In this document: piece after piece, positions 14,110-35,087 of the stretch
Layout: the number at the start of each line of letters is the position of its first letter
Position numbering within the stretch: position 1 is the first letter of the stretch
Assembly (NCBI GenBank): GCA_964554185.1
Contig: CAZKNJ010000003.1
Span: 2,968 to 66,967, forward strand
DNA from: an uncultured Planctomycetales bacterium
GTDB taxonomy: Bacteria; 4484-113
Length of the DNA stretch: 64,000 nt
Direction: 5' to 3'
Position numbers and translations under genes: made by a program
Notes under the pieces: model-generated
Seen by the model: the letters and a program-made list of their open reading frames with translations, nothing else
Database searches by the model: none
What the model was told of the DNA's origin: nothing

Positions 14110-14195
14110 TGGCTAGTCTAGTACCTGATTAACCGCGTATGTATTGTGCTCCAGTGCATCCCGGCTGGGGTGCGGCATCGGTAATCGCCCCTTGG

Positions 14196-14204
14196 TGGTA
14201 TAAT
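14196..14204 (+). promoter_or_regulatory. extended -10 TGgTATAAT only 9 nt upstream of the clpX ATG (near-leaderless)
   Basis: cttgGTGgTATAATtgtctatct then ATG at 14214. No SD sequence between them. Confidence 0.45.
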
Positions 14205-14213
14205 TGTCTATCT

Positions 14214-15605: not shown

Positions 15606-15637
15606 GCTGCTGGTCTTTCAGTTCTGAGGAGGGAAAC

Positions 15638-16702
15638 ATGCGTACTTCACGCATTCTGCTGACCATCACCAGCGCATTGACAGTGCTGCTGTATACCCAG
15701 TCGATCTTGGCCGATCTTGAACCTGGAACCGAAATACCACCAGTTGACTGGGCGGAGGTTGCGACCGAAGTGCAGGACTGCCGCTTGGGCGCGGACGAGC
15801 TTGGCGGTTACGTTGCGCTGGAAGAGCTGCAATTCAGCAAGGGGCTGTACTGGTTTGCCTCGCCCGAGGAATGCCGCCTCAAGCTGCTTCCGTTCTACTT
15901 AGATGACCGCTTCGCCGGGGAGCTTCCGCTGGACCTGGTTTATGATGTAATCCAGCGTGGGGACATCCCGCTGACCAGAGAGCTGGCTCAACTAATTGGC
16001 GTCAAGCGCAACGCCCTGCCGGACTGGAAGGAACTCACGCGCACCGAGCGCTTGCAGCTTTTCGCCTCCTTCCCCGCACCGGAGCGCAACATGCCGCTGC
16101 CGATGGCGCACCCGCCCTTCGCGCTGACGCTGCCGGGCGCGATGGCAGCGCAAGAGCTTGGCGCCGTTGACGGGCTGGGCGGCTTCTTGGCTGTGGCCTT
16201 CGCCGACCCGGAAAGCACCGTCAGGTTCGATGCCGACCACCGCATGTATTCGGGCGGACGCTGGCTGCCTCGATTCACGAAGCGCTACCTGCGCCTCATT
16301 GCTAACCAGCAGACCGGCGGCTTTTTTGAGCCGTGGCACGAGAACTTCTCGCCGGGGAACGGCTACTTCATCAGGATTGACCGACCGGAAGCGATTGATG
16401 CACTGGTGGACTACTGCGCGGTTGCCGACCGCGACCTGCTGCTGCGCCGGATAGCCGTCCATCCGCCCTCGAGGGCCATAAAGGAGCCCATGGGCGGTAC
16501 TGCCGGAACCATGCTGTGGCTGCGTTCGGTGGACCCGGTCAAGGTAGTCCGCGACGCCCTTGAGACGGGTCAACTTCAGGAGTATGTCTCGTTCTACTAC
16601 TTCCGGATGTACGGCAGCGAGCGGGTGATCGCCGAGGGCATTGTCCTCGCGCCGACCGAGCAGGCGCTGACCACCGCCGCCGAGAGCAGCGTTCGCGGCT
16701 GA
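15638..16702 (+). CDS. secreted protein, EPWH-GNGY module family, paralog A
   Basis: Signal peptide MRTSRILLTITSALTVLLYTQSILA. GGAGG RBS. Contains LTRTERLQLF, then FFEPWHENFSPGNGYFIRI, then FYYFRMYGSERVIAEGIV. Confidence 0.65.
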   Translation: MRTSRILLTITSALTVLLYTQSILADLEPGTEIPPVDWAEVATEVQDCRLGADELGGYVALEELQFSKGLYWFASPEECRLKLLPFYLDDRFAGELPLDLVYDVIQRGDIPLTRELAQLIGVKRNALPDWKELTRTERLQLFASFPAPERNMPLPMAHPPFALTLPGAMAAQELGAVDGLGGFLAVAFADPESTVRFDADHRMYSGGRWLPRFTKRYLRLIANQQTGGFFEPWHENFSPGNGYFIRIDRPEAIDALVDYCAVADRDLLLRRIAVHPPSRAIKEPMGGTAGTMLWLRSVDPVKVVRDALETGQLQEYVSFYYFRMYGSERVIAEGIVLAPTEQALTTAAESSVRG

Positions 16703-16766
16703 ACAGTGCACACGCTTGGTGCGTCATACCTGCATCCAGTAACAAACACTTCCGAGGAGGGGGACG

Positions 16767-17609
16767 ATGAAACGCATACTACTTGTAGCCGTGCTGGTCC
16801 TGCTGGCCACCGCTTTCTCCGGCTACGCGCGCGCCGAGGATAAGACGGTGGTGAAAAGCATGGCTTTCACTATCAAGCTTGCCGGAGATGAAGCCGCGGC
16901 GAGCGATATGGCTAACGCCATGCTCTTCATCCACGCGCTCAAAGCGGTGGGCGGCGAGATCCACTTTGAAGGCGACAACGTGGTCATCAAGCTCGACCTT
17001 ACGCCGGAGAAGGTGGAGGCTCTGCGCCTGGCGCTGGAGCAGGGCGGCTTGCCCGTGGGGCTGATGCCCGGAGTGGTCCTGAAGAAGGGGGACATGCCCG
17101 AAGGTATGGAAGACTTCATCTGTCCTCCTCGCAAGTCTGGCAGCCACGAGCGTTTCCTGCTGGGTAATAAAGACGAAAAGGGTAAAGGCTACTCCGAAAG
17201 CTACACCTCACGCGGGCTACCCGAGATGCCCGAGATCAAGTGCCCCCATTGCGGCAAGACCTTCCGCCCGGACATGCCGAAGATGATGATGCCGCATCCG
17301 CCGATGCCCCCGATGCCGCCGTCTGGCGGCGAGTTCAAACCGGAGATGCCCCACGGGCCGATGCCTTACGGCGGAATGATACCCGGCATGGGCCCGATGC
17401 ACGAGGATGCAATGAAGCAGCTTCAAAGTCTGCGCGAGCAAATGGAGCAGATGCGCGCGGAGCAGGGCGAGCTCTGGCGGGCGCTGGAGGAGTTGCATAT
17501 GCAACTGGGCCAGGTGCACAAGATGGACCGCGCGAAGTGCGAGGACCTGGACGCCCTCTGGCGCGCCCTAGATAAGCTCTATGCCGAGCTGGACGAGGAG
17601 GACGACTAG
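16767..17609 (+). CDS. secreted Met/Pro-rich protein with CxxC and C-terminal coiled coil (possible Cu/metal-binding periplasmic protein)
   Basis: Signal peptide. KCPHCGK. A Met-rich tract MPKMMMPHPPMPPMPP...MPHGPMPYGGMIPGMGPM. An acidic coiled-coil tail. GAGGAGGGG RBS. Confidence 0.6.
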   Translation: MKRILLVAVLVLLATAFSGYARAEDKTVVKSMAFTIKLAGDEAAASDMANAMLFIHALKAVGGEIHFEGDNVVIKLDLTPEKVEALRLALEQGGLPVGLMPGVVLKKGDMPEGMEDFICPPRKSGSHERFLLGNKDEKGKGYSESYTSRGLPEMPEIKCPHCGKTFRPDMPKMMMPHPPMPPMPPSGGEFKPEMPHGPMPYGGMIPGMGPMHEDAMKQLQSLREQMEQMRAEQGELWRALEELHMQLGQVHKMDRAKCEDLDALWRALDKLYAELDEEDD

Positions 17610-17660
17610 CCCGCTGCGGTAGAATAGTAAGGAGAAGTCTCTCAGGACAGGAGGCGCCAT

Positions 17661-19367
17661 GTGAAAACCGGGTGGCTGATGGTGGTGCTGGTGGCGCTTG
17701 TGTGCGCTGCCGGAGGGTGTGTCAACGCCAAGGCCCAGAACGATCAGGCTGAAGCGGATATGGATCGTGAGCAGCTACTGGACGAGTACACCCAGTTCCT
17801 GAAGGAAGTGAAGTGGGACACCCCGATTGACTTCACTCAGGACTTCTTCCGGCCCGACGAAGGCTTTCGCCCTCCAGATGTGCCTCAGGGGCTGGGAGAC
17901 TATCGGACACTGCCTCTGCTGCTGGACCTATTCGGCATCAATGAGCTGCCCATACCGAGCGGCGCGACCTTCGCTGGGATCAAGTTGACCGGCGAAGTGG
18001 AGCCACTGGACGAACTATCGCTGGCGGAGCAGAACACGCTGATGCTTCGCTTCCGCACGTCGGGTAACCTGGGGAACATCTATAACGCCATGACGCAGCT
18101 GCGTCTAGCTCCCATGATGGCGTTGAGCGGGCAGAGTGAGCTGAGCTCCATCCGGGATATTGTGGAGTGCGAGCGGGGCAAGCAGCCGCTAGTAACGGTA
18201 ACTGATTACGTCGGTTGGGTCCGGTCGCAGCGGAGGCAGCTCCCCACCAGCGATTACCAGGAATGGTTCCGCCAGAACGTGCTCCCCTACTATGCGAACT
18301 GGGTGACGGGCGGCCTGTTTGAGCCCTGGCATGAGGAATTCTCGCCGGGTAACGGCATCATCCGCGAAATAACCGATGAAGCCGATCGGGCTCAGCTCCA
18401 CGAGCTGGCGGTGAAGCAGGCAAGTGAAAAGGGCGACGAATACGATACGGGCTTTCTAGAAGAGAACCCGGATGACGTAGCGTATTTCGTCTATCGCCTG
18501 TACGGGGAAGATAAGGTCATCAAAGAGTGTGTAGCGTGGTGCTTGCGGAGCCGCGCTTCGTGGGGCGAACCTCTTCGCCGGGAGCACGATGAAGTGATAG
18601 CTATTCTGGCGCGGAGACTCGAGGAGAATGTCCTCACAGACGAAGGTCTTGAGCAATATGCAAAGATCACAGACAGATGGGAGTGGGCTAAACACAATCC
18701 TTATGCTGAATGGTGCGAGAACTGCGCTGAAGGGATTGACGAGCGTTATGAAGAGATGATGGACGAGCTGCAAGTGGCTCAACACGGCGAGTTTCCCGAG
18801 ATAGGGGAAGACTGGAGTCTCTCAGACTTACCGCTCAATGATAGCCTGGTCTACTGGGAGAACCTGACTGACGGAGAAGAGCGGACGCTGGCCTTTCGTG
18901 AGAACATCAGTTCGTCGTTCACTGATTACTTGCAGGACCTGGCTGGTTCCGACTATGAGGCAGTTACTTCATGGGAGCAACTTGCCGAGGTCGTACTGCA
19001 AGATCTGATCAGATTCCGTGACGAAACCTGGATTCAGACGGTTTCCTCAAAACGCAGTCAACGGAGTATTGACTGCTGGCTCAGCCCCATCACCCGCCGC
19101 ACCTTCGAACCCTGGCACCGGGAATGGAGCCGAGGAAATGGATACATTATCCAGATAGCCGAGGAGGATATGCTGGCCCGGCTCATTAAGCTATACGAAA
19201 AGGCGATTGAGGAAGAAGTCGTTCCTACAAGGCTTCACCCCTTTTATTACGAGCGCTACCCACATCGTCTGCGCTTCTATTACGTGCGCCTCTATGGTGA
19301 GGAGGAAGGTTCCATCATCTCCGAGGGCATCTGGTCGGCCTGGCCGCTGAATCCCATGCTGGACTAG
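17661..19367 (+). CDS. secreted protein, EPWH-GNGY module family, paralog B (two tandem modules)
   Basis: GTG start at 17661, 6 nt after AGGAGG. Signal peptide MKTGWLMVVLVALVCAAGGCVNA. Module 1 is LFEPWHEEFSPGNGIIREI...YFVYRLYGEDKVIKE. Module 2 is FEPWHREWSRGNGYIIQI...RFYYVRLYGEEEGSIISEGI. The 3' half has lower GC. Confidence 0.6.
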   Translation: MKTGWLMVVLVALVCAAGGCVNAKAQNDQAEADMDREQLLDEYTQFLKEVKWDTPIDFTQDFFRPDEGFRPPDVPQGLGDYRTLPLLLDLFGINELPIPSGATFAGIKLTGEVEPLDELSLAEQNTLMLRFRTSGNLGNIYNAMTQLRLAPMMALSGQSELSSIRDIVECERGKQPLVTVTDYVGWVRSQRRQLPTSDYQEWFRQNVLPYYANWVTGGLFEPWHEEFSPGNGIIREITDEADRAQLHELAVKQASEKGDEYDTGFLEENPDDVAYFVYRLYGEDKVIKECVAWCLRSRASWGEPLRREHDEVIAILARRLEENVLTDEGLEQYAKITDRWEWAKHNPYAEWCENCAEGIDERYEEMMDELQVAQHGEFPEIGEDWSLSDLPLNDSLVYWENLTDGEERTLAFRENISSSFTDYLQDLAGSDYEAVTSWEQLAEVVLQDLIRFRDETWIQTVSSKRSQRSIDCWLSPITRRTFEPWHREWSRGNGYIIQIAEEDMLARLIKLYEKAIEEEVVPTRLHPFYYERYPHRLRFYYVRLYGEEEGSIISEGIWSAWPLNPMLD

Positions 19368-19437
19368 CAGCCGCTCCCATAGCTGCATCCCCCGGGAGAA
19401 TCGGGTAGACTAATTGCGCCCCGGCGGGCGCAGGCTG

Positions 19438-21321
19438 ATGGCTCCCGACACCCGATACAACGCCGGCGTTTCCCTTTCCGAGGTCTACGAGACCGTGCGG
19501 ATTCCCGCATTCGGCCATTGGTGGAAGCGGCTGCTGGCATTCATGGGCCCCGCGTACCTGGTCTCCGTCGGCTACATGGACCCGGGCAACTGGGCCACCG
19601 ACCTGGAGGGTGGGGCGCGTTTCGGCTACCAGCTCATCTGGGTCGTCCTGATGAGCAACCTCATGGCGGTGCTCCTCCAGGTGCTCTCCGCCCGGCTGGG
19701 CATCGTCCGCCGCCGCGACCTGGCGCAGGCTTGCCGTGAAGCCTACCCGCCCATCGTGTCCTACCCCCTATGGATACTCTGCGAGCTTGCCATCGCCGCC
19801 ACCGACCTGGCGGAAGTGCTGGGAACGGCCATCGGCCTGAACCTCCTGTTCCATATCCCGCTGCTCATCGGCGTGATTATCACCGCGTTTGACACCGTCC
19901 TGGTGCTTTACCTCCAACGCCTGGGGATGCGGCGGCTGGAGGCTTTCATCGTGAGCCTGGTAGCCATCGTGGGCGGCTGCTTCCTGGTGGAGATCTTCCT
20001 CGCCAAGCCCGACTTCGGGCAGGTCGCCGGCGGCTTCATCCCGAAGATAAACGCCAGCAGCCTCTACATCGCCCTGGGCATAATCGGCGCCACGGTTATG
20101 CCGCACAACCTGTATCTCCATTCCGCGCTGGTGCAGAGCCGGGCGGTTGACCGCAGCGAGCAGGGCGTGCGCACGGCCAACCGGTTTAACCTGATTGACA
20201 CTGTTATCGCCCTCCAGTTCGCCTTCCTGATTAACGCCGCCATCCTGGTGCTGGCCGCAGCGGTGTTCTTTCAGAAGGGAATAGTGGTTACCGAGATACA
20301 GCAGGCGCACGAACTGCTGGCGCCGCTGCTGGGCACCGGTCTGGCGTCCATAGCATTCGCCGTGGCCCTGCTGGCGGCGGGTCAGTCCTCCACGCTGACA
20401 GGCACCCTCGCCGGGCAGATAGTGATGGAGGGCTTCATCCGGGTGAAGATGCAGCCTTGGGCGCGTCGGCTCATCTCGCGGCTGCTCGCGGTTATCCCGG
20501 CGGTAATCGTGGTCGCTCATGCCGGCAGCGAAGGGACTTACAAGCTGCTAATCCTCAGCCAGGTGATTCTGTCGCTGCAACTGCCGTTCGCCATCGTTCC
20601 GCTCATCAACTTCACCAACGACCGCGAGCGCATGGGCAAGTTCGCCAATCCAGTCTGGGTGCGCCTGCTGGCGTGGCTAACCGCCATCGTGGTCATCGGC
20701 CTGAACGCCTGGCTGGCGGGTCAGATGTTCCAGGAGTGGCGCCAGGCTTCCGTGTGGGCGGACATTATCGGGATTCCGTTGGGGATAGCGCTGGTGCTAC
20801 TATTAGCCTACATGGTATTCCGCCCCTGGCTCAAGCACCTGTTCACGGCCAAGCCGCACAAGCCGGTCGCGCCCGCGCTGCCCGAGTTCCCCACCGGGCA
20901 CCTGTATCACAAGGTCGGCGTGGCGCTGGAGGTCAAGGACACCGATGTGAAGATCCTTAAGCACGCGCTGCCCTACGCCGAGCAGTGCGACGCGAAAATG
21001 GTGCTGATTCATATCGTGGAAAGCGCCACCGCGCAGGTCTATCCCGGAACCGCAGAGGACCAGGAGCGGATTGAGGATGAGGAGTACCTGAACGGGCTGG
21101 CGGCAAAGCTGCGCGAGCGCGGTGTCACCGCTTCGGTGCGTATGGGCTACGGCAACGCCGCTAAAGGCGTAGTGCGGATAGCGCGCGAAGAGAAGCTGGA
21201 CCTGCTCGTCCTCGGCAGCCACGGCCACAAGGCCATCGCCGACTGGGTGTTCGGCTCCACCGTCGCCGTGGTGCAACACGACATCGGCGACATCCCCATC
21301 CTGGTTGTCAAGGGCACCTGA
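19438..21321 (+). CDS. Nramp/MntH-family divalent metal transporter fused to a C-terminal universal stress protein (UspA) domain
   Basis: Nramp signature GPAYLVSVGYMDPGNWATDLEGGA and about 11 TM segments. C-terminal roughly 140 aa: VALEVKDTDVKILKHALPYAEQCDAKMVLIHIVES...VLGSHGH...ILVV is Usp-like. The ATG at 19438 was chosen by alignment to the MntH N-terminus. Confidence 0.75.
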   Translation: MAPDTRYNAGVSLSEVYETVRIPAFGHWWKRLLAFMGPAYLVSVGYMDPGNWATDLEGGARFGYQLIWVVLMSNLMAVLLQVLSARLGIVRRRDLAQACREAYPPIVSYPLWILCELAIAATDLAEVLGTAIGLNLLFHIPLLIGVIITAFDTVLVLYLQRLGMRRLEAFIVSLVAIVGGCFLVEIFLAKPDFGQVAGGFIPKINASSLYIALGIIGATVMPHNLYLHSALVQSRAVDRSEQGVRTANRFNLIDTVIALQFAFLINAAILVLAAAVFFQKGIVVTEIQQAHELLAPLLGTGLASIAFAVALLAAGQSSTLTGTLAGQIVMEGFIRVKMQPWARRLISRLLAVIPAVIVVAHAGSEGTYKLLILSQVILSLQLPFAIVPLINFTNDRERMGKFANPVWVRLLAWLTAIVVIGLNAWLAGQMFQEWRQASVWADIIGIPLGIALVLLLAYMVFRPWLKHLFTAKPHKPVAPALPEFPTGHLYHKVGVALEVKDTDVKILKHALPYAEQCDAKMVLIHIVESATAQVYPGTAEDQERIEDEEYLNGLAAKLRERGVTASVRMGYGNAAKGVVRIAREEKLDLLVLGSHGHKAIADWVFGSTVAVVQHDIGDIPILVVKGT

Positions 21322-21335
21322 GCCCGGGCGCGGCT

Positions 21336-24300
21336 TTACCACTCCTCCTTGGGGACGCCTGCGCCACTGCGGTCGGGATACTTCGGCTTGGGTGTATCAT
21401 GCCAGGCGTGCGTCTTCAACTCCTCCAGCACCTCCTGGATGGCGCGTTCCAGCTGTGGGTCAATCCCCTTGGCCAGCAGCGTGGGGTCGTCAATGACCTC
21501 AATGTCGGGATCCACCCCGTGCCCTTCAATCGCCCAGGTGCCGTCGAGTTCGTAGATGCCGAAGCTCGGCACCGACACATAGCCGCCGTCAATGAGGCCG
21601 GGGTTGCCGGTCAGGCCCACCAATCCGCCCCAGGTGCGGGTGCCGATGAGCTTGCCCAGCCCGGCCTTGCGGAAGTAATAGGGGAAAGCGTCGCCGCCGG
21701 AGCCGGCAGACTCGTTGATCATCATTACCTGCGGGCCCGGATGCGTGCGGTAGGGCGTGCGCCAGCTCATGCCGTCGTGTAGCGCCCAGTAGTTGAGCAC
21801 CGGCCGGTTGAGCAACTCAATGAAACGGTCGGGCAGCATCCCGCCGCCGTTCCAGCGTTCATCAATGATGAGCCCGTCCAGGTTGTGTTGCCCGAGGAAC
21901 TGCCGCTGCAGGTCGATAAGGCCGCTCCAGGACGTGTTGCGTACGTAGATGTAGCCGATGCGCCCGTCACTGCGGTCAAAGACATGCTGGCGGTTGGTTT
22001 CTATCCAGGCGCGTAGCCGCAACTCGTAGTCGCTGCCCGCCGGCTGCAACAGCACCTGCCGGGAGTCATCGTCCGCGACCGCTTTCGTGCTCACGGTCAG
22101 CTCGGTGGTTTTCTCCGCCGTCCCCGCTAGCGCGGCGTATGGCGACTTGTCCTCCGCCAGCGGTATGCCGTTCACCGCTAGCAGGAAATCGCCCTCGTGC
22201 ACGTCCACTCCCGGGTGGCACAGCGGTCCGCGCACATCCAGCTCCCAGTCCGCGCCGTCGTAGATCTTCTTGATGCGGTAGCCCCAGTTGCCGTCCGCGT
22301 CCTGTGCGCGTTCAAAGTCGCAGCCCAGCAGGCCCACAGACATGGAGCGTGTCTCTTCCGTGGGCCAGCTCCAGACGTAGGCGTGGCCCACGTTCAGTTC
22401 GCCCACCATTTCGCCCAGCACGTAGGACACGTCGTCCCGGTTGGCGGCGTGCTTCACCAGCTCCAGCGCCTGGTCGCGCGCGGCTCCCCAATCCACGCCG
22501 TGCATATTGGGGTCGTAGAAGAAGTCGCGGTAGAGGCGCCAGGTCTCGTAGATGATCTGCCGCCACTCTTTGCGCGGATCAATCCGCATCGTGAGCCCGT
22601 CGGTGTTCACCTGCTTGTCCAGCGAAGCCCCGGGGCCGGCCTGGGTAATGAAGTAGCCGCCGCGGGCCGAGACCAGCATCTTCTTGGCGTCCGGTGTCAG
22701 CGCGAAGCCGGAGGCGCCCAATATCAACGTTTGCTCTTTCTGATCCGCCAGGTCATACATGGAAAGGCCGCCTTCGCCACCGCCGCGGCGGCGGCCATAT
22801 CCGCTCAGGTAGAACACGCGCTTTTCGCCCGCCTGCAGGCCGTAGTAGGAACCGGCGGAAACCGGCAGCAGTTCCGCCCGCTCTTCCAAGCCCTCCAGGT
22901 CTATCTTCAACGGCTCCACCTCTTTATCCTTGCCATCGCCCTTCTTAGCAGTCTCGGCACCTTCATCCTCGGCTGCCTTCTCGGCGTTTTCGCCGGAATC
23001 GTCCGCGTCCACGGCCGCTTCCTCCGGCTCCGCCTTAGTATCTTCCTCCTCCTTGATTTCCTCCTCATCGTTCTTCGGAGCGAAGGGAGAGGCGATGTCG
23101 TTACGCAGCGGCACCACCGCCAGTTGCGTCGCGTCGGTGAAGACGAAGGTGCCCTGGTCAAAGCTGCTGAAGGTTGGGCTGAAGCTCCGGTCGGTGGCGA
23201 AGTACAGGTACTCGCCGCTCAAGTCAAACGCCGGGTCGCGGCTGGAGAACATGTCCGAGGTCACTTGGTGGGAGCGGCGGTTGGCCAGGTCGTAGAGCTT
23301 GATGACGCTGTTGCTGTTGCGTTCGCTGGCGACGGTGTAAGCCAGCCAGTTGCTGTCCTGCGCCCAGGCGGCGGTGAGCCCCTGGCCGTCCCACGGGTCG
23401 CGGTCAATGAAGATGGTTTCGCCGCCATCAATATCGTGAACGTAGTACGCGCCGGTCTTATCGGAGAAGGCGATCTTCTTGGAATCGGGCGACCACACCG
23501 GGTAGTAGCGGAAGGCGTTCCCGTTGCGGGTCAGCTGTTCTTCCGCGCCGCTGCCGTCTGATTTCTGACGGCAAAGCTCGTATTCGCCGGTCTTGTCGCT
23601 GAAGTAGGCGATCCACTGGCCGTCGGGCGACCACGCCGGATAGCGCTCGGCTATGCCGTCGGTGCGGTTCAGGTCGCGCGGGAAGCCGTTCTCCGCCGGC
23701 AGCGTCCAGATGTCGCAATGTGCGTTTGCCACCAGACGCTTGGCCTGTGGCGAGATACCCACCTGGGACACGCTGCCGGACACGTCCACCGTCTGCAGAC
23801 GCACGTGCGGATGGTCGCCGGGCACGTTCACCTGCACCTGCTCGGTTTTATGGTCGGACAGGTGCAGCAGCAGCAGCCGGTCGCCGTACTGAAACACGAG
23901 GTCGTCAGGCCCGATGGACGGCCACTTCACGTCGTAGCGGGTGAACCTGGTCACTTGCTCGCGCTGGGCGCTCTTGGTGTCGTAGACCCAGATGTTGAGG
24001 CGGTGTTCGGGGCCGGCGTCGGACAGGAAATAGATCTTGTCGCCGTGGAACATCGGCAGGTCGTCGGTGCCGGGGAACAGGGTGATGCGGTGCGACTCGT
24101 AGGTCTTGAGGTTGAACAGCCAGAGGTCGGTCGCCCGCCCGCCCTGGTAGCGCTTCCAGGTGCGGAACTCGCGGGTCCACGGCGTGTAGGCCAGCCAGAC
24201 GCCGTCGTCGCTGATGGACGCATTGGCGCCGTAGGCCACCGGCAGCGCTTCCGGCAGCGCGCCCGTGGGCGAGGCGAAGTACAGCCGCAATCCCGCGGGG

Positions 24301-24707
24301 CAGGTCGGCTCCCGCGCGGAGCTGAAGATGACGCGCCCGTCGGGGCTGTAATCCACCACCAGGTCGGTGGCAGGATGGTAGGTCAGGCGCTGCGGAATGC
24401 CGCCCGCCACCGGCATGGTGTAGACGTCCTCGTTGCCGTCGTAGTTGGCGGTGAAAGCGATGGCCTTGCCGTCGGGGCTGAACTTGGGCAGCATCTCCTG
24501 CCCCGGGGGCGAACTCAGGGGGACGGCGGTGCCGCCCGCCTTGGGCACTATCCACACGTCGTTGTCGTAGACGAAGACGACTTTGTCGGCGCTGACGTCG
24601 GGATAGCGCAGCATTACCGCGCTGACCTCCTCCGCGGCGCGCGCGCTGAAGTAAAAGGTGGCAACGGCAAGAATGAGTACGAGCAAAGCGAGAATCAATC
24701 TCCGCAT
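21336..24707 (-). CDS. secreted tricorn protease homologue (beta-propellers, PDZ and S41 peptidase)
   Basis: 1123 aa. Signal peptide. TolB-like WD repeats (SPDGKAIAF, SPDGRVIF, SPDGQWIAY). Acidic insert. C-terminal S41 tail-specific-protease-like region. GGAGG RBS. Confidence 0.75.
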   Translation of the reverse strand: MRRLILALLVLILAVATFYFSARAAEEVSAVMLRYPDVSADKVVFVYDNDVWIVPKAGGTAVPLSSPPGQEMLPKFSPDGKAIAFTANYDGNEDVYTMPVAGGIPQRLTYHPATDLVVDYSPDGRVIFSSAREPTCPAGLRLYFASPTGALPEALPVAYGANASISDDGVWLAYTPWTREFRTWKRYQGGRATDLWLFNLKTYESHRITLFPGTDDLPMFHGDKIYFLSDAGPEHRLNIWVYDTKSAQREQVTRFTRYDVKWPSIGPDDLVFQYGDRLLLLHLSDHKTEQVQVNVPGDHPHVRLQTVDVSGSVSQVGISPQAKRLVANAHCDIWTLPAENGFPRDLNRTDGIAERYPAWSPDGQWIAYFSDKTGEYELCRQKSDGSGAEEQLTRNGNAFRYYPVWSPDSKKIAFSDKTGAYYVHDIDGGETIFIDRDPWDGQGLTAAWAQDSNWLAYTVASERNSNSVIKLYDLANRRSHQVTSDMFSSRDPAFDLSGEYLYFATDRSFSPTFSSFDQGTFVFTDATQLAVVPLRNDIASPFAPKNDEEEIKEEEDTKAEPEEAAVDADDSGENAEKAAEDEGAETAKKGDGKDKEVEPLKIDLEGLEERAELLPVSAGSYYGLQAGEKRVFYLSGYGRRRGGGEGGLSMYDLADQKEQTLILGASGFALTPDAKKMLVSARGGYFITQAGPGASLDKQVNTDGLTMRIDPRKEWRQIIYETWRLYRDFFYDPNMHGVDWGAARDQALELVKHAANRDDVSYVLGEMVGELNVGHAYVWSWPTEETRSMSVGLLGCDFERAQDADGNWGYRIKKIYDGADWELDVRGPLCHPGVDVHEGDFLLAVNGIPLAEDKSPYAALAGTAEKTTELTVSTKAVADDDSRQVLLQPAGSDYELRLRAWIETNRQHVFDRSDGRIGYIYVRNTSWSGLIDLQRQFLGQHNLDGLIIDERWNGGGMLPDRFIELLNRPVLNYWALHDGMSWRTPYRTHPGPQVMMINESAGSGGDAFPYYFRKAGLGKLIGTRTWGGLVGLTGNPGLIDGGYVSVPSFGIYELDGTWAIEGHGVDPDIEVIDDPTLLAKGIDPQLERAIQEVLEELKTHAWHDTPKPKYPDRSGAGVPKEEW

Positions 24708-24847
24708 GAGTGGTTCCTCCTGGTTGGAAGATGCCGGGGCGGCTCTGAACTCACCGATTTTACCATGCGGCGAAGATGCGGGGATTGAAACCTCAGCCCG
24801 CCCGTGTAACCTCTCCGGCGCCCCGCGTGTCTTATTATTGGTAATAC

Positions 24848-25393
24848 ATGGCCCGCAGAACCGACGAATGGCCCCCGGAACTGGAAGCGCTGCTCCGCGA
24901 GCACTTCACCGCCGCCGCCGGCTTCTGCCGCTTTCTCGCCGGCAGCGAAGAAGCGGCGAAGGAGTTGCTGGCGGAGGCCGTGGCGTTGGCAGCTATGCGC
25001 TTCCGCCAGTTGCGCGACCGCGGCAAGTTCCGCCCCTGGCTCTACGCCATCATCCGCAACCGCTGGCGCAACACCTACAAGCGCAGGCGACGGGATGCCG
25101 TGATGGCGGAGCTGGAGCGCCTGTCCGCCTCGGCGAACCCGTCCAGGGAAGACTACGACCACAGGCTGGTGGATTACGCCCTGGCGCGGCTGCGTCCGGC
25201 GGAGCGCGAAGCCTTCGTGCTCTTCCACCTGGAAGACCTCTCGCTGAAGGAGGCTGGGGCAGTGCTGGGCGTCCGGCCCGGTGCCGTGAAGGTGCGCCTC
25301 CACCGCGCGCGCAGGCGGCTGGCGGCAGCGCTGGAAGGCGCCTTAGGGTACGCTGAAGAGAAGCTCGGGCCAAAGGAGAAAGAAGATGAGTGA
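24848..25393 (+). CDS. ECF-subfamily RNA polymerase sigma-70 factor
   Basis: 181 aa. Region 2 FRPWLYAIIRNRWRN and region 4 LSLKEAGAVLGVRPGAVKVRLHRARRRL. Confidence 0.85.
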   Translation: MARRTDEWPPELEALLREHFTAAAGFCRFLAGSEEAAKELLAEAVALAAMRFRQLRDRGKFRPWLYAIIRNRWRNTYKRRRRDAVMAELERLSASANPSREDYDHRLVDYALARLRPAEREAFVLFHLEDLSLKEAGAVLGVRPGAVKVRLHRARRRLAAALEGALGYAEEKLGPKEKEDE

Positions 25394-27281
25394 GCTCAAT
25401 CCCGCTGTCCTGGACGCATGGGTGGAGAATACCCGCCAATTTCGGCAAGGCTACCAGCCGGGCTACTCGCTCGACGAGGTGAAAGAATCTGCGTACTTCG
25501 CCAGACGAAAGCTGAGCGCATTTTCGCGGAGGCGCAACCTTGCCATTGCCGCCGTCGCTGCAGTATTACTGGCTGGCGTCTGGATCATCGGCGCGCTTTC
25601 CGAGAGCAACGAGACTCCCGCTCCCGGAAGCTTCTGGGACCGTGCGGGTGGTGGTTTCACCAGTGGTTATGCTGCAATCGGCAATTGGTTCGGTGCCGCG
25701 CTGGAAGTCGGTCAGAAGGAGTATGAGAAGCGCGTAACCGAGGTCTTCCTCAACAAACTCATGACGATGGTCCTGCCGGATGATATCGCAGATAGCATCG
25801 GCAGCTTCGTGGATGAGATAACTGAACCGCTTGACTTGGGGCGCGCCCGTGGGATGGTTGGTGGATTTTCGCAGCAGCCGGGAATTACGGAATACTACCA
25901 GGATATGGTTCAGTTTGGCTGGAGGCCCATCCGCAGCCAGTTGAAGAGCATTGAGGGCTTGCCGCTGGATTCACCGGTGAAGCCTTATGAGCAACTGACT
26001 TCGCGTGAGCGGGCGTTGCTGAGCCCCACTTACACCTATCAACGCTATATGGGCGACAACGGCTCACCGGGCTCCGATATGCTCCCCTTCCGGTTGGCGT
26101 TTCTGTGCACCAACGACCAGCGGGTGGATGAGCGCCTGGACGAACTGGATGCACGCGCTTATGCGCGCAGGCTAATTGGCTCCGAAGGATACTTGGGAAT
26201 GATAGAGGCGCGGCGGGCCTTCTCCCGGGAGGAGGGCGACCGCTGGTTGGCGAAGAATTTCCTGGTGCGGGTAGCCTCTCCCGTCAGCGGCCGGGTCTTT
26301 GAGCCCGACCACCCTGAGTTTTCGCGCGGCAACGGCTACATCAAACGCATAACTGACCAATCTTCAGTACAGCAGCTGGAGAAGGCGGTGATGGATGCCG
26401 GCGTAGTGGAGCTGGATAATATTTACGTGCAGGCGTCCCCCGGCCACGATTGGTCGGCGCTAAAGCAGATTGAGTGGTTCTACTTCAGGGTATTCGGCGA
26501 GGATAGTGTCATAGCGGAAGGTATCATCCCGGTGGACAGCGTGAGCTTCCCCGCTAGCGCTCTGCACACGGAGGATTTCTCCGAGAGGACATTACGCCGC
26601 TTTCGGGAGAGACTTGCCGAGGCGCGCAAACCCGCGTTGGATTATGAGGAGTGGCTGCACGCGCAGACGACTGCCGAGCTGGGGGTCTATGCGGCTGGGC
26701 TCTTGCGGAACACCAGGCTGAACGACGCGCTGAGGATTCCCCTGGACACCTCCGGCGCCAGCAACGATGAGCTGAACGCCGTCAGACGCGGCAATGTGCG
26801 CGGCCTCAAGTCCGATAGCATCTCTGGGCTTCCGCTGGACGACCCGCTGCCTGCGCCGTCAGACTTGATGCAGGACGAGCGCGTGCTGATCGCGACCGCC
26901 TTGAACGGCGACAACTCGGCGCTTAGCTGGTTCAGAGCCACAGGCGCCACAGCCATTTCATCAGTTGCGGACTGGATGCCATACTCCTTCAGTCGCGACC
27001 AGCTAAGGCAGCTGCTGAGGTCTGACAGCGTACAGGGGGGGGGATCGCTGAAGGAATACCTGAGGAAGATCCCGCCGCCTTACGCCTCCGGCACGCCTTA
27101 CGACTTCTTCCTCCCCATCTACCGCGACTTTGAGCCCTACCAGGGGTATTTTGAGCGCATCGTGGAGCCGGAGGCGTTCGCCAAGGTGGAGCGGGCCGCC
27201 GGGCACCCGGTGAAGGACGCTATCTACTTCCGCCTCTACGGCGCCGAGCGCGTCATCGCCGAAGGCGTCTGGGCGGAGTAG
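25386..27281 (+). CDS. membrane-anchored EPWH-GNGY module protein (paralog C); putative cognate anti-sigma factor
   Basis: Its start overlaps the sigma-factor stop (ATGAGTGA). About 50-aa cytoplasmic N-terminus, one TM (LAIAAVAAVLLAGVWIIGAL), then a 560-aa outside domain. Module 1 is VFEPDHPEFSRGNGYIKRI...WFYFRVFGEDSVIAEGI. Degenerate module 2 is FEPYQGYFERI...IYFRLYGAERVIAEGV. Confidence 0.6.
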   Translation: MSELNPAVLDAWVENTRQFRQGYQPGYSLDEVKESAYFARRKLSAFSRRRNLAIAAVAAVLLAGVWIIGALSESNETPAPGSFWDRAGGGFTSGYAAIGNWFGAALEVGQKEYEKRVTEVFLNKLMTMVLPDDIADSIGSFVDEITEPLDLGRARGMVGGFSQQPGITEYYQDMVQFGWRPIRSQLKSIEGLPLDSPVKPYEQLTSRERALLSPTYTYQRYMGDNGSPGSDMLPFRLAFLCTNDQRVDERLDELDARAYARRLIGSEGYLGMIEARRAFSREEGDRWLAKNFLVRVASPVSGRVFEPDHPEFSRGNGYIKRITDQSSVQQLEKAVMDAGVVELDNIYVQASPGHDWSALKQIEWFYFRVFGEDSVIAEGIIPVDSVSFPASALHTEDFSERTLRRFRERLAEARKPALDYEEWLHAQTTAELGVYAAGLLRNTRLNDALRIPLDTSGASNDELNAVRRGNVRGLKSDSISGLPLDDPLPAPSDLMQDERVLIATALNGDNSALSWFRATGATAISSVADWMPYSFSRDQLRQLLRSDSVQGGGSLKEYLRKIPPPYASGTPYDFFLPIYRDFEPYQGYFERIVEPEAFAKVERAAGHPVKDAIYFRLYGAERVIAEGVWAE

Positions 27282-27332: not shown

Positions 27333-28349
27333 TTGGTAGCCGATGACTTCGACAACCGGGAAGCGCGCGAGGAGGGCCTCGCGAGCGAAACCATCAGCCT
27401 GCGGGGCAACCGGGAGCTGAAGGAGCTCCTGGGGGACTTTGATTGCCACCTGCGCCGCCTGCGCTCGGATCTGGGCGTCAAGCTCTACACCAAGGGCCAG
27501 GCGGTTCACATTGTGGGCGCGCCCGAGGACGTGCGCCGCGCCTACAGCGTCATCCACGACCTGCTGCGCATTGTGCGCCGCGAGGGGGAACTGAAGGAAC
27601 AGGACGTTGACGAACGGCTGGCGCAGGAGATGGAGGAGATGCAGCAGGGCGTGCCGGTCAAGGGCAACGAGCTGCTGCCGATGGTGCCCAACGTCAATCC
27701 GCGCACCCCCGGCCAGGAAGAGTACCTTCGCGCCATCGCCGAAAACGACGTGACGCTGTGCTTCGGCCCGGCCGGCACCGGCAAGACCTTCCTCAGCGTC
27801 GCCGCCGCCATTTCGCACTTCAAGCGCGGAATGGTGAACCGGCTGGTGCTCACGCGGCCGGCGGTGGAGGCGGGCGAATCGCTGGGCTTCCTGCCCGGCA
27901 CGCTGGTGGAGAAGGTCAATCCTTACCTCGTCCCGCTGTTTGACGCGCTCAACGACATCCTCGGCTTTGACCGCGCGCGCAAGATGATTGAGCGCGGGGT
28001 GGTGGAAGTCGCGCCGCTGGCGTTCATGCGTGGCCGCAGCCTCAACCACAGCTTCATCATCCTGGACGAGGCGCAGAACACCACTTATCCCCAGATGAAG
28101 ATGTTCCTCACGCGCATGGGGCGGGGGAGCCGCGCGGTGGTCACCGGCGACATCACCCAGATTGACCTGGCGAAGCGCGAGGATTCGGGCTTCGTCTCGG
28201 CGCTGCGCGTGCTGAAGGAGTTCGGCCCCGGCGTCACTACGATTGAGCTGAAGCACTCCGATGTGGTGCGCAACCCGATAGTGCAGCGCATCATTAACGC
28301 CTACGACTGCTTTGAAGGGAAGGAGCGCGACCCGGGAGGCGCGGAGTGA
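27333..28349 (+). CDS. PhoH-like ATPase (YbeZ type)
   Basis: Full-length alignment to the YbeZ architecture. Walker A GPAGTGKTFLSVAAA. LTRPAVEAGESLGFLPG. FIILDEAQNTT. The start must be TTG because no in-frame ATG exists for about 100 codons. Confidence 0.85.
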   Translation: MVADDFDNREAREEGLASETISLRGNRELKELLGDFDCHLRRLRSDLGVKLYTKGQAVHIVGAPEDVRRAYSVIHDLLRIVRREGELKEQDVDERLAQEMEEMQQGVPVKGNELLPMVPNVNPRTPGQEEYLRAIAENDVTLCFGPAGTGKTFLSVAAAISHFKRGMVNRLVLTRPAVEAGESLGFLPGTLVEKVNPYLVPLFDALNDILGFDRARKMIERGVVEVAPLAFMRGRSLNHSFIILDEAQNTTYPQMKMFLTRMGRGSRAVVTGDITQIDLAKREDSGFVSALRVLKEFGPGVTTIELKHSDVVRNPIVQRIINAYDCFEGKERDPGGAE

Positions 28350-30397
28350 TGGCGGAGGAACGCAACAATCGGGCCGGCCGCCGCAAGTGGAAGCCGCCTT
28401 TGGCGCTGACGCAGCTTGCGGGCGCGCTGGTCTTCTTCGCTTTCACCCTCGGCCTGCTGTACGTGCACATGATCCTGTTCCCCGTGCGCCTGGTGCCGGG
28501 GCAGGTGGTTGCTTTTGACATCAAGTCGCCGATGGACACCACCTATGTGGACTCCGCCGAGCTGTCCGCCCTGCGCAAGGGCGGCAAGGCCAGCATCCTG
28601 GATCCCAGCGTGGCCGAGCGGGCGTTGCTGAATATGAGCAACTTCTTCGCCGGCCTGCACCGGGCGCGGCTGGCGGGCGGCGACGCCAACCAGCAGGTGG
28701 AGAAGCTCTCCGGGGACTATGGAGTCCCATCGCAGTTTGTGGCGGAGCTCATCACCTTCTCGGAAGATGAGCTGGACGACGTGCAGAACTACGCGCGTGA
28801 AGTGCTCACCAGCTTCATGCAGACCACGCTGGCGAAAGACGAAATCAGCCAGCTTCAGAACTCCTCAATGGAGTCCATGTCGCTGACCATGCCGGAGAAG
28901 GTGGCGGTGTTCTTCCTGGAGCAGAACATCGTTGAAGCGCCTGATATTCCCGAGGTGGAGAAGCACATCAAGAAGCTGGTCACGCACTCGATTGCTAAGG
29001 GAGAGATAATCCTCGCGGCCGGCGGGATGGTTGACAGCGTGGTGCTGGACAAGCTGGAGGCGGTGGAAAGCGGCCTGTACAAGCAGCGCCACTACAACTT
29101 TGCGGGAATGGCAGTGCTGCTGCTGCTGCTGATGTTGGTATGGTACGCCCACCTACGCTACTACAAGCAACAGATATTCCGCAATCCCGCGCTGTGGGGC
29201 CAGCTCACAGCGATTTTCTTTGTCAGCCTGCTGCTGTCGCTGGCGGTTGGCCGGATGCCGTTCCGTTACGTGTACTATTGCGTGCCTCTCGCAATTGCCG
29301 CCGCGGTGATTGTGCTGGTAACGATGTACGACGCTATCCTGGCGCTGTACTTTGGCATCGGTCTGGCGCTGATAGCCTCCCTGGCGCTCAATTTCAACAG
29401 CAATCTCGCAGCCTACCTGCTGGTCTCCAGCACCTATCCCGTGGTTTTCCTTCATCGCCGATCCACGCCGCGCCATCTAGCGGTTTTCGGCTTCAACCTC
29501 GGGCTGGCGAACCTGGCGCTGGTGCTGGTGGTGATACTTGTATCGGTGGAGACTTTCTCCTGGTGGGCGATTGGATATGCTTTCTTCACCGGCGTGGCGG
29601 CGGCGGTGCTAGCGCTGGGCATCACCCCCATTCTGGAGATGCTCTCGGCGCAATTGACGCCGAGCAAGCTTCAGGCGCTGCTCAACCCGGAGAATCCGAT
29701 GCTCAAGCGGCTGCTGGAGGAGGCTCCCGGCACCTACTTCCACTCAATGGTAATGGCGTCAATGGCGGAGGAGGCCTGCAACGAAATCGGTGCCAACGGC
29801 CTGCTGGCGAAAGTGGGCTGTATGTACCACGACATCGGCAAGCTCAAGCGCCCGGGCTTCTTCGCCGAGAACATCAGTGACCTCAGCAAGAATCCGCACC
29901 AGCACTTGCCGCCGGAGAGCAGCTTCAACATCATCGCCCAGCACATCACCGATGGCCTGGAGCTTGGCCGCAAGGCCGGCCTGCCGTCAGAGGTGCTCGC
30001 ATTCATCCCCGAGCATCACGGCACAACCATCGTGAAGTACTTTTACGAGGAGGCGCGGAAGCGGGCCGAGGCGGACGGCGCATCAGTGGATGAGGATGAT
30101 TTCCGCTACCACGGGCCCAATCCACATGGGCGCGAGACGGCGGTGGTGATGCTGGCGGACACCTGCGAGGCTAAGGTGCGGGCGATGGAGTCTTTCACCG
30201 AACAGGAAGTCTCCGAGACCGTGATGGAGGTGGTTGATTCCAAGGTGAAAGGCGGATACTTGAATGAATCCGGCCTGACCGTTGGCGACATCAACCGGAT
30301 TGCGGGAGCGTTTACGCGCGTCTTGGTGAACCTGCACCACGCCCGGCTGAAATATCCCGAGCAGAACGACACCGGGGTGGCCTCCGTCAGTGATTAG
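28346..30397 (+). CDS. 7TM receptor with intracellular HD hydrolase domain (PgpH/YqfF-like)
   Basis: 683 aa. Extracellular N-terminal domain, a 7-TM block, and HD domain HSMVMASMAEE...YHDIGKLKRP...HHGTT. Overlaps the phoH-like stop. Confidence 0.8.
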   Translation: MMAEERNNRAGRRKWKPPLALTQLAGALVFFAFTLGLLYVHMILFPVRLVPGQVVAFDIKSPMDTTYVDSAELSALRKGGKASILDPSVAERALLNMSNFFAGLHRARLAGGDANQQVEKLSGDYGVPSQFVAELITFSEDELDDVQNYAREVLTSFMQTTLAKDEISQLQNSSMESMSLTMPEKVAVFFLEQNIVEAPDIPEVEKHIKKLVTHSIAKGEIILAAGGMVDSVVLDKLEAVESGLYKQRHYNFAGMAVLLLLLMLVWYAHLRYYKQQIFRNPALWGQLTAIFFVSLLLSLAVGRMPFRYVYYCVPLAIAAAVIVLVTMYDAILALYFGIGLALIASLALNFNSNLAAYLLVSSTYPVVFLHRRSTPRHLAVFGFNLGLANLALVLVVILVSVETFSWWAIGYAFFTGVAAAVLALGITPILEMLSAQLTPSKLQALLNPENPMLKRLLEEAPGTYFHSMVMASMAEEACNEIGANGLLAKVGCMYHDIGKLKRPGFFAENISDLSKNPHQHLPPESSFNIIAQHITDGLELGRKAGLPSEVLAFIPEHHGTTIVKYFYEEARKRAEADGASVDEDDFRYHGPNPHGRETAVVMLADTCEAKVRAMESFTEQEVSETVMEVVDSKVKGGYLNESGLTVGDINRIAGAFTRVLVNLHHARLKYPEQNDTGVASVSD

Positions 30398-30469: not shown

Positions 30470-31519
30470 ATGGTTGCGCCCCGCCAAAACAAGCGCAAGG
30501 AGCCCAAGGCCAAGCCCTCGGTGCTGGTCGGGCTGATTTCGCTCGCAGCTGTCGTCGGCATCGCTGCAGCCGTGTCGGCGTTGCTGACCGGCGGCATGAG
30601 CGATATCCCGGGCCAGGCGCAAACCGCCGTGCAGGATGCGAGTGCGGCAGTTGAGGCTGGCGGCAAAGGCGGGGAACGCAAGCTAAACCGGCAGGCGGTT
30701 ATTGCCGCCAGGGTGTCCTCCATGCTGTCGGAGCTCACGCTTGAACGTGAGCGTCTGGCGGAGTTCAGCACGATGGAGGAAGTCAGCCGCGCGATGCCGA
30801 CCAAGTTCTACCCCTCGCGGGAACGAATCAGGACAGCTCAGCGCGGCTTCTATGAGGGAGTTGCCCAGAGACTCGGGCACATCGCCGGCGAGCCGCTTAC
30901 TGACCCCGTGAAGCCCTATTCGGAGCTGTCGCGGCGGGAGAAGCTGCTTCTTTTCTCCGACTGGGCGGGGACCGACTACATTGACCAGCCGGTGTACGTG
31001 GCATTGATGGCGCGCATGAATATGGCAGACATCAGCTTCGTGCCGGACTTCCATACCTTTGCCTCGCTCTGGACCGAAGCCGATCTGGAGAACCTGGCAG
31101 CCATCCGTGAAGCCTCCGGGGGCGACCACGGCAAGATGCAGATGTTGATTGCCGATGAATGGCTGCCGCTGTTCGTAAGCCCGGTGTCGTATACCTGCTT
31201 TGAGCCCTGGCACAGCGAGTGGGCCGCCGGCCACGGCTTCATCGTAGAGATTGCTGACAAGGGAGAGCGCCAGCGGCTGGTGGAGGCAATCGTCTCAACT
31301 CAGATTGAGATGAGGAGTGCCGCCATTGGCCCGAGTGACGTGGACCGTATGCTGAAAGGGGAGAGTACTGCCAGCCCCGGACCGCAGGAGAGCAGCTATA
31401 ACTATGCGAAGTTCTACTACTACCGCATATACGGCGAGCATGAAGGCTCAGTCATCGCCGAGGGAATCTACCAGATGGACAGCTACGACTGGGTGCAGCG
31501 CCGCTGGACCCGCAACTAG
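30470..31519 (+). CDS. membrane-anchored EPWH-GNGY module protein, paralog D
   Basis: Single N-terminal TM VLVGLISLAAVVGIAAAVSALL. Contains PVKPYSELSRREKLLLF, then CFEPWHSEWAAGHGFIVEI, then FYYYRIYGEHEGSVIAEGI. Confidence 0.6.
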   Translation: MVAPRQNKRKEPKAKPSVLVGLISLAAVVGIAAAVSALLTGGMSDIPGQAQTAVQDASAAVEAGGKGGERKLNRQAVIAARVSSMLSELTLERERLAEFSTMEEVSRAMPTKFYPSRERIRTAQRGFYEGVAQRLGHIAGEPLTDPVKPYSELSRREKLLLFSDWAGTDYIDQPVYVALMARMNMADISFVPDFHTFASLWTEADLENLAAIREASGGDHGKMQMLIADEWLPLFVSPVSYTCFEPWHSEWAAGHGFIVEIADKGERQRLVEAIVSTQIEMRSAAIGPSDVDRMLKGESTASPGPQESSYNYAKFYYYRIYGEHEGSVIAEGIYQMDSYDWVQRRWTRN

Positions 31520-32133
31520 CCCGCCTCCTCGGGATTCCATTTCCACCTTTCTGTGGTCTCAAGGCCGCAGTGCTGCATGATTCGTTCAACCAGCGCGTCG
31601 TTCACATCTTCCAGAGTCCGAGGCTTGTAGTAGTAGCCGATCACCGGTGGCAGCACTACCGCTCCCGCATGCGTGACCCGCAGCATGTTCTCCAGGTGAA
31701 TCGTCGACAGCGGCGTCTCCCGCGCTGCGAGAACGAGCTTGCGCCTTTCCTTCAGTGCAACATCGGCGCACCGCGTTATAAGGCAGTTTGAGTATCCTGC
31801 CGCAATACGCGCGAGCATCCCCATGGAGCAGGGGCAGACAACCATCGCGTCCCAGCTGCAACTGCCGGAGGCGATGAGGCCGAACAGGTCGCCGGGCTCA
31901 TACTGGTGAACCTCCGCGGCCAGAGCGGTTCCCGCGGACTGCATGTCGGCGATCACCGCTTCCAGGCGCGGCTCAACGCCGGTTTCCTGGCGAAAGATCC
32001 TTGAGCCGGTGGGAGAGAACACGAGGTGCAGCGTCAAGTCGCAGGTAAACAGCCGGTGCAGCAGCCGTAGCGCGAGCGGGCCGCAGCTTGCGCCACTCAC
32101 GGCGCAAACAACCGCATGCTTGCCACTTTGCAT
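31516..32133 (-). CDS. ubiX: UbiX/Pad1-family flavin prenyltransferase
   Basis: 205 aa. Aligns along its length with E. coli UbiX (AVSGASCGPLALRLL...VVCPCSMGMLARIA...ADVALKERRKLVLAARETPL). Confidence 0.85.
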   Translation of the reverse strand: MQSGKHAVVCAVSGASCGPLALRLLHRLFTCDLTLHLVFSPTGSRIFRQETGVEPRLEAVIADMQSAGTALAAEVHQYEPGDLFGLIASGSCSWDAMVVCPCSMGMLARIAAGYSNCLITRCADVALKERRKLVLAARETPLSTIHLENMLRVTHAGAVVLPPVIGYYYKPRTLEDVNDALVERIMQHCGLETTERWKWNPEEAG

Positions 32134-35014: not shown

Positions 35015-35087
35015 TGGAAGCAGTAACCTCCGTCCCCAAGATGGTAAGACCGGCCGAAATGGCGAGCCTGACACCTGATTATACACT

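Follow-up and report, generated by a model that had tools for sequence, protein, structure and literature searches.

Pairs of a sigma factor of the extracytoplasmic function (ECF) type and an anti-sigma factor are a major bacterial signalling mechanism, and what signal they respond to is in most cases not known. In most ECF groups a putative anti-sigma factor is encoded at position +1, usually with one transmembrane (TM) helix and usually without a Pfam anti-sigma domain; 82 groups have putative anti-sigma factors with one TM helix, and position +1, TM helices and conservation serve as the operational criteria for calling a protein a putative anti-sigma factor (PMC7826278). The class I anti-sigma domain is a three-helix bundle plus a fourth helix, and the class II domain, as found in CnrY and NepR, is a two-helix clamp embracing sigma2 and sigma4 (PMC6101532). 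Here we analyse a pair of this kind in a 64,000-nucleotide stretch of contig CAZKNJ010000003.1 from an uncultured Planctomycetales bacterium (the window, with a G+C content of 61%), where the gene of an ECF sigma factor is directly followed by a gene, called C below, for a single-pass membrane protein. By analogy with the described systems, we consider it rather probable that C is the cognate membrane anti-sigma factor, which would tether and inhibit the sigma factor through a minimal two-helix clamp and take an envelope signal with its ectodomain, the freed sigma factor then amplifying the operon. We infer the anti-sigma function of C from its context only, and with it the binding to the sigma factor, the direction of the regulation and the nature of the signal.

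The sigma factor gene, gene C and their putative promoter

24806..24833, + strand: ECF-type promoter-like motif GTAACCT-N11-CG-N3-GTCTT (GTAACCTCTCCGGCGCCCCGCGTGTCTT), 15 nt from its end to the sigma ATG; putative promoter under autoregulation, with a leader that would be very short
24848..25393, + strand: 181-aa sigma factor of the sigma-70 family, ECF type (group 4), with Pfam and NCBIfam matches
25374..25378, + strand: Shine-Dalgarno sequence AGGAG of C, read within the end of the sigma gene, 7 nt before the ATG at 25386
25386..27281, + strand: gene C, the downstream open reading frame (ORF), single-pass membrane protein, 631 aa

A first-pass annotation of this DNA had taken the upstream gene for an ECF sigma factor, and the domain searches agree: Pfam finds Sigma70_r2 at aa 16-82 (2e-07) and Sigma70_r4_2 at aa 106-158 (3.4e-15), and the NCBIfam model TIGR02937 (sigma70-ECF) matches at 1.5e-21, with 76.8 bits against a cutoff of 42.9. 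The protein consists of the sigma2 and sigma4 domains only, without sigma1.1 or sigma3, which is the make-up of group 4 ECF sigma factors, and the Pfam scan found no regulatory extension on its 181 residues. The nearest solved structures are Mycobacterium tuberculosis SigE, SigH, SigW and CnrH. The overlap between the sigma stop and the start of C, also claimed in the first-pass annotation, is exact in its coordinates: the two share 8 nt, and ATGAGTGA is read at 25386-25393. Such overlapping frames are consistent with translational coupling.

The sigma-C pair is beyond chance, being conserved in all informative related loci, that is, in those with readable DNA upstream of C. In every one of these (L001, L002/L006, L003, L004/L007, L009, L010, L011 and L016) a sigma orthologue lies directly before the C orthologue, with C identities of 38-79%. 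The closest is L003 (C 79% identical, 8-nt overlap), followed by L001 (43%, overlap GTGACTGA once the called start is corrected), L004/L007 and L011 (about 41%, frames overlapping) and L002/L006 (38%, 11-nt overlap); L010 also has an 8-nt overlap with the sigma gene, the frames of L016 overlap too, and in L009 the pair is present in frameshifted form. The sigma and C identities fall in parallel (88/79, 64/43, 49/41 and 39/38%). The sigma orthologues form a distinct group (P0085-P0095, at least 49% identity, E<=1e-38), after which there is a gap to 43% and an E value of 1e-19; the nearest non-orthologous ECF, P0096 (43%), is followed 165 nt downstream by an unrelated, module-less protein. An orthologous sigma gene with an unrelated gene behind it, which, for an unrelated anti-sigma gene, the first-pass annotation had named as the arrangement that would speak against a cognate pair, does not occur among the informative related loci. 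Selection on C is purifying, with a dN/dS of 0.15-0.22.

A reading in which overlap and ORF are due to chance or to mis-annotation, the two genes being functionally unconnected, is hardly credible. It is true that compact bacterial operons often contain 4- or 8-nt overlaps, which prove no link alone; however, the pair is conserved in about ten independent loci, the dN/dS is near 0.15-0.2, C has its own Shine-Dalgarno sequence, and a domain of C is predicted to fold confidently (see below). Pair conservation, dN/dS and the domain model together have, in effect, already refuted this reading.

Two of the loci call for comment. The L004/L007 contig (contig_117997) has many frameshifts, with clpX in three gene calls and C split into 498 + 162 aa, and looks like an uncorrected long-read assembly, so that gene lengths from it are unreliable. 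In L008, an ORF pair of 213 + 632 aa with an 8-nt overlap was considered as a second sigma/partner pair and rejected, since the proteins are NuoE/NuoF-like.

The promoter-like motif GTAACCTCTCCGGCGCCCCGCGTGTCTT sits within the 140 bp that precede the sigma gene. ECF promoters such as those of sigma-W, sigma-X and sigma-E have an AAC-containing -35 element and a GTC- or CGT-containing -10 element, spaced by about 16-18 nt. The sequence GTAACC-N17-GTCT, with AAC at -35, GTC at -10 and 17 nt between them, fits this general pattern as a putative promoter. Its architecture and its distance from the start codon (15-16 nt) are kept in four lineages (the window, L003, L001 and L004/L007), and the intergenic DNA around it is unalignable in L003, L001 and L004/L007. 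No Shine-Dalgarno sequence is found before the sigma ATG (24833-24850 region), and since the -10-like GTCTT ends, in all four lineages, a mere 15 nt ahead of the start codon, a leader shorter than about 10 nt, and so a near-leaderless sigma mRNA, is implied; in the window, transcription is predicted to begin about 7 nt after GTCT, near 24839.

The first-pass annotation had suggested a search for the ECF promoter motif upstream of 24848 and elsewhere in the genome; an ECF-like motif is present at the former place, and no second copy was found in the window or in the flanks of the related loci. The exact motif matches once in the 64-kb window, at the sigma gene, and there are no further copies before the paralogue genes A, B and D (described below) or before other window genes; extra matches with three mismatches occur at the chance level and are not upstream of the paralogues. 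Likewise, the flanks of about ±10 kb around the related loci hold no second copy, each locus having one match, always at the sigma gene, apart from one match to the looser TAACC-N15-19-GTCT in L008. The sole promoter that can be assigned to the sigma factor is therefore its own.

Downstream of C the same strand continues as follows.

27333-28349, + strand: PhoH-like ATPase (Pfam PhoH, 4.3e-85), between C and D
28346-30397, + strand: 7TM-receptor HD hydrolase (Pfam 7TM-7TMR_HD, HD and 7TMR-HDED), between C and D

The genes sigma, C, PhoH, 7TMR_HD and D thus form a same-strand run with D as the last, and this order repeats in L003 and L004. PhoH and 7TMR_HD are possibly co-transcribed. Since no terminator-like site is found between C and PhoH and the order is kept in L003 and L004, D may be reached by read-through.

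The cytoplasmic N-terminus of C as a candidate sigma-binding domain

25386..25538, + strand: cytoplasmic N-terminal segment of C (aa 1-51), predicted to form two amphipathic helices, at aa 6-22 and at aa 29-52; candidate for a class II-like anti-sigma domain that binds the sigma factor
25539..25601, + strand: single TM helix of C (aa 52-72; Kyte-Doolittle, peak 2.55)

A basic stretch, RRKLSAFSRRRN, precedes the hydrophobic segment at aa 52-72, and an N-in topology is therefore predicted, which puts about 51 residues on the cytoplasmic and about 560 on the outer side. The Kyte-Doolittle profile agrees with the cytoplasmic N-terminus of about 50 residues, single TM helix and large outside domain that the first-pass annotation had described, and the TM position is unchanged in the orthologues P0002, P0004, P0005, P0006 and P0015. 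Neither Pfam nor NCBIfam gives a match anywhere in C. By the operational criteria cited above C is a putative membrane anti-sigma factor: it stands at +1 of an ECF gene, is conserved across the group, and has a TM helix and a cytoplasmic N-terminus. The standard sigma/anti-sigma layout that had been proposed is thus borne out in its position +1, overlapping frames, N-in orientation and single TM helix.

Within the N-terminus, Y23 and A39 are invariant over 7 orthologues, and L9, W12, F19 and Y23 make up a hydrophobic face with i/i+3/i+4 spacing. The first 50 codons are under purifying selection (dN/dS 0.21-0.23). Class I anti-sigma domains often carry an HxxxCxxC zinc motif; the N-terminus of C has no Cys/His motif and no match to zf-HC2, RskA or RseA_N at E<=10. 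Its 51 residues and two predicted helices before the TM segment exclude class I. An AlphaFold model of the sigma factor fused to C(1-53) as a single chain, with alignment depth for the sigma factor only, has a pLDDT of 80.6 and a pTM of 0.71 and places the helices of C at aa 6-22 and 29-52. From these predictions, the N-terminus, with two helices whose lengths would suit such a fold, resembles the two-helix clamp of class II, without sequence similarity to CnrY or NepR. The modelled sigma factor is compact and superposes best on ECFs bound to their anti-sigma factors, whereas RNA polymerase-bound ECFs align with it over one domain; this compactness is compatible with an anti-sigma function of C but is not discriminating.

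Several observations weigh against C being an anti-sigma factor of this kind. Among the soluble parts of C the N-terminus evolves fastest, with 64% identity as compared with 79-85% overall. It has no similarity to anti-sigma families in Pfam (also at E<=10) or NCBIfam, a profile built from seven N-terminal sequences finds no anti-sigma chain in the Protein Data Bank (PDB), CnrY and NepR included, and 51 residues with two helices would not suffice to build the common class I domain. In the fusion model the pLDDT of the two helices reaches only 61-77, and AlphaFold may yield a compact sigma factor whatever the partner. As for the promoter, at least one exact match to the motif arose in 21 of 100 shuffles, so that the single match in 64 kb is weak alone and the promoter argument rests on the conservation across lineages; moreover, the motif was not found upstream of the L002/L006 sigma gene.

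The sign of the regulation deserves separate attention. The N-terminal fragment of FecR is required for FecI, and C could likewise be a positive regulator or a pro-sigma partner whose N-terminus is needed for sigma activity, perhaps combining inhibition with activation. The conserved overlapping pair and the N-in topology would fit such a role equally. However, C has no similarity to FecR (PF04773) or DUF4880, the sigma factor, judged by the NCBIfam and PDB entries that it matches best, does not resemble FecI, and no TonB-dependent receptor gene is present among the neighbouring genes examined. We regard a FecR-like activating role as quite improbable.

If C is an anti-sigma factor, the system might work as follows. 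The sigma gene and C would be transcribed together from the GTAACC-N17-GTCT promoter, which is probably recognised by the sigma factor itself. In the resting state, the two amphipathic helices of the 51-residue N-terminus would clamp sigma2 and sigma4, by analogy with CnrY/CnrH and NepR/EcfG, and this clamp would keep the sigma factor at the membrane. The signal would enter through the extracytoplasmic part of about 560 residues, predicted to comprise a helical juxtamembrane stretch and two tandem alpha+beta modules, of which only the first is intact and the other degenerate. The ectodomain might bind a ligand or a partner or be proteolysed, and this could then release or destroy the clamp, upon which the free sigma factor would boost its own operon.

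The extracytoplasmic module and its paralogues

25875..26546, + strand: module 1 of C (aa 164-387), intact, with GLPLD..P..LT..ERALL / SPVSGRVFEPDHPEFSRGNGYI / FYFRVFGE..VIAEG
26748..27278, + strand: module 2 of C (aa 455-631), degenerate, delimited by alignments and the hidden Markov model envelope
14139-15605: ClpX gene, upstream neighbour of A
15638..16702, + strand: paralogue A, 354 aa, one module, signal-peptide-like N-terminus, directly after ClpX
17661..19367, + strand: paralogue B, 568 aa, two full modules, lipoprotein-like N-terminus (…CAAGGC)
30470..31519, + strand: paralogue D, 349 aa, one module, TM anchor after about 16 basic residues

From the motif scan and alignments, the outside part of C consists of two tandem copies of a module of about 180-250 aa, of which the second is degenerate. 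The module is recognised by three signatures, G-PL-D..P..EL..ER.LL, SPV.G..FEPxH.EFS.GNGYI..I and FYYFRxYGE..VIAEG. In module 2 the EPxH..GNGY element is replaced by FEPYQGYF, with loss of the His and the GNG, and YFRLYGA..VIAEG is kept. The name EPWH-GNGY, under which the first-pass annotation had introduced these proteins, suits A, B and D, which have a literal EPWH, but not C, where module 1 reads FEPDH...GNGY (D for W) and module 2 is degenerate. Among close pairs of orthologues, module 2 is conserved better than module 1 (82-92% vs 82-88% identity). Three gene calls that look like a stand-alone module 2 (P0010, P0011 and P0013) are fragments; P0010 and P0013 come from frameshifted assemblies, and P0011 begins in mid-domain on a 1.3-kb contig.

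No described sensor domain was found in aa 73-631 of C: sequence searches of Pfam, NCBIfam and the PDB gave no match, nor did the fold comparison with the PDB, so the outside domain stays as unrecognised as it had been called at first reading. The AlphaFold model of module 1, built on a 43-row alignment, has a pLDDT of 86.4 and a pTM of 0.85 and shows helices in the N-terminal half and, after them, a beta-alpha-beta4 sheet bearing the conserved motifs.

The family is very small. A word-indexed search of 5.8 billion proteins returned six proteins of the C type, including one with a sequence identical to that of C. Its size was taken from an exhaustive profile search, as the word-index profile search gave few matches: among 1.84 billion representatives of clusters at 50% identity, 76 proteins match at E<=1e-3 and 28 of these at E<=1e-10. 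The weaker members are 200-340 aa long, have N-termini that, wherever complete, look like signal peptides or membrane anchors, and retain SPxTG..IE..H.EFSPGNAY and Y.RxYGE.GVIAEG; no Pfam family is common to 47 of them. The distant members P0042 and P0038 lie on contigs of 1-3 kb, where a tandem paralogue is the only visible context. In a scan of 185,579 species genomes we found three loci, one in 'Planctomycetales bacterium 4484_113' and the others in two further metagenome-assembled genomes. The name '4484-113' is in use at phylum level (PMC11484514). It probably goes back to the first of these genomes.

The soluble and anchored paralogues that had been reported near the pair are indeed there, A with a signal-peptide-like, B with a lipoprotein-like and D with a TM-anchored N-terminus. 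According to the first-pass annotation they could be ligands, decoys or co-sensors; none of the three genes is preceded by a copy of the promoter-like motif of the sigma gene. A cytoplasmic segment of substantial length (about 50 aa) is found in C only, and A, B and D are without one. In the 4484_113 lineage (L002 12155-13051 and L006 8102-9178; P0025 and P0026) a single-module paralogue with a lipobox (LGGC or VSSC) lies immediately 3' of C, so that the paralogue nearest to C is a lipoprotein there and the TM-anchored D in the lineage of the window. L014 (299-2060), from an organism with 48% G+C, encodes distant members as adjacent tandem paralogues of 317 and 272 aa in overlapping frames. 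Since tandem paralogues are thus also present in this lower-GC organism, paralogue clustering seems to be a family trait.

The distribution of the module bears on a further explanation, namely that C is not an anti-sigma factor but an envelope protein that is co-transcribed with the sigma gene or belongs to its regulon. The sigma factor would then be controlled transcriptionally, by phosphorylation or by an unlinked regulator, and the N-terminus of C would be a segment for membrane insertion or localisation only. Most proteins with the module have no cytoplasmic domain, namely A, B, D and about 45 distant members that are secreted or are lipoproteins, which suggests that the module has an envelope function of its own; the shortness of the N-terminus of C, its place as the least conserved soluble part and its lack of similarity to known anti-sigma domains point in the same direction. 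On the other hand, the adjacency at +1 is strict, usually with overlapping frames, down to 38% identity, the cytoplasmic extension is confined to the sigma-linked paralogue and is under purifying selection, and the 181-aa sigma factor is without a regulatory extension. A role of C purely in the envelope is, in our opinion, possible though on the unlikely side.

A bolder proposal can be built on the cognate anti-sigma function of C. The EPxH-GNGY module might be a new extracytoplasmic fold of a lineage-restricted envelope system with several paralogues, found in the candidate phylum 4484-113 and its relatives, with the anchored two-module C as a receptor that has a new minimal anti-sigma clamp, and A, B and D might bind the degenerate or the intact module of C homotypically and so set the ECF activity. 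We consider this proposal unlikely; if it were true, an exchange of paralogues, and not a small ligand or proteolysis, would gate the sigma/anti-sigma switch.

Gene neighbourhood and comparison with known systems

The cluster clpX - (A) - X - (B) - sigma - C recurs in the window (14139-19367), L001 (4724-9783), L004 (79-8489) and L016 (1314-4032). In all loci clpX is without an adjoining clpP, and four lineages have it in their conserved neighbourhood; in L002 it directly precedes the sigma gene. ClpXP removes cleaved RseA and RsiW. The conserved clpX is reminiscent of this removal, and it may equally reflect simple synteny in a narrow clade.

Protein X (window 16767-17609, + strand; L001 6272-7255; L016 1314-2438) is 280-374 aa long; it combines a signal peptide, a zinc-ribbon-like CPHCG motif, a stretch rich in Pro and Met and, at its C-terminus, a coiled coil that closes with ...LWRALD.L..EL.E, and no Pfam family was found for it. 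In the window its gene stands between A and B; in L001 and L016 it directly precedes the sigma gene. On the opposite strand (21336-24707, -), a 1123-aa tricorn-like protease with PD40 repeats, Tricorn_C1, PDZ_Tricorn and Peptidase_S41 domains and a signal-anchor-like N-terminus divergently adjoins the sigma promoter. It is absent from that position in L001, L002 and L004, which makes a site-1 protease role speculative.

Reading the translation, a 635-aa ORF (19414-21321, + strand) is like an Nramp/MntH-type metal transporter (DPGNWATD) fused to a C-terminal universal-stress-protein-like domain; relative to L004 it is an insertion between B and the sigma region. Downstream of the cluster lies the gene of a 983-aa protein (32135-35086, - strand), whose L004 counterpart (15149-16489) has SIR2_2 along with numerous TPR repeats. 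It comes after the gene of a UbiX-like flavoprotein (31516-32133), and this arrangement is kept in L003 and L004.

With regard to its significance, the analysis adds new parts and no new principle, the logic at the system level being textbook. If the clamp is confirmed, the N-terminus of C, as a minimal two-helix domain unlike CnrY and NepR in sequence, would either broaden class II or be the first of another class. The module is a confidently modelled extracytoplasmic domain without a solved relative, from a tiny family confined to poorly known uncultured lineages, and the conserved cluster clpX-A-X-B-sigma-C-...-D supplies hypotheses on partners.

Of the class II systems, CnrH/CnrY (with CnrX) of Cupriavidus metallidurans likewise pairs an ECF sigma factor with a class II anti-sigma factor, but C(1-51) does not resemble CnrY in sequence. 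CnrY itself is tiny, and its periplasmic tail is short, whereas C bears about 560 extracytoplasmic residues of a novel tandem module, and no metal-resistance context is seen among the neighbouring genes of the window. NepR is soluble and acts by partner switching with PhyR; in contrast, C is membrane-anchored, and no PhyR-type response regulator lies beside the pair in the loci examined. The sigma factor itself has a weak PhyR_sigma-like Pfam match, below cutoff.

The locus shares with RseA/sigma-E and RsiW/sigma-W the order of sigma and then anti-sigma gene, the N-in single TM helix, the large outside domain and an autoregulated ECF promoter, the last being putative for C. In those systems proteolytic release ends with ClpXP, and clpX belongs to the conserved cluster of C in four lineages. 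The differences are that C, unlike these class I proteins, has room for two helices only and has no zf-HC2, RseA_N or RskA match, and that no site-1 or site-2 protease is conserved beside sigma and C, the tricorn/S41-PDZ protease being adjacent in the window only.

C belongs in the category of 'putative anti-sigma, +1, one TM, no Pfam domain' of ECF classification 2.0 (PMC7826278). It differs from the generic member of that category in that its sensor part comes from a very rare family and has a predicted fold without a PDB counterpart. Taken together, the layout and the logic of the system are ordinary, and what is new are its parts, namely the minimal cytoplasmic domain, the fold of the ectodomain and the clustered paralogue family.

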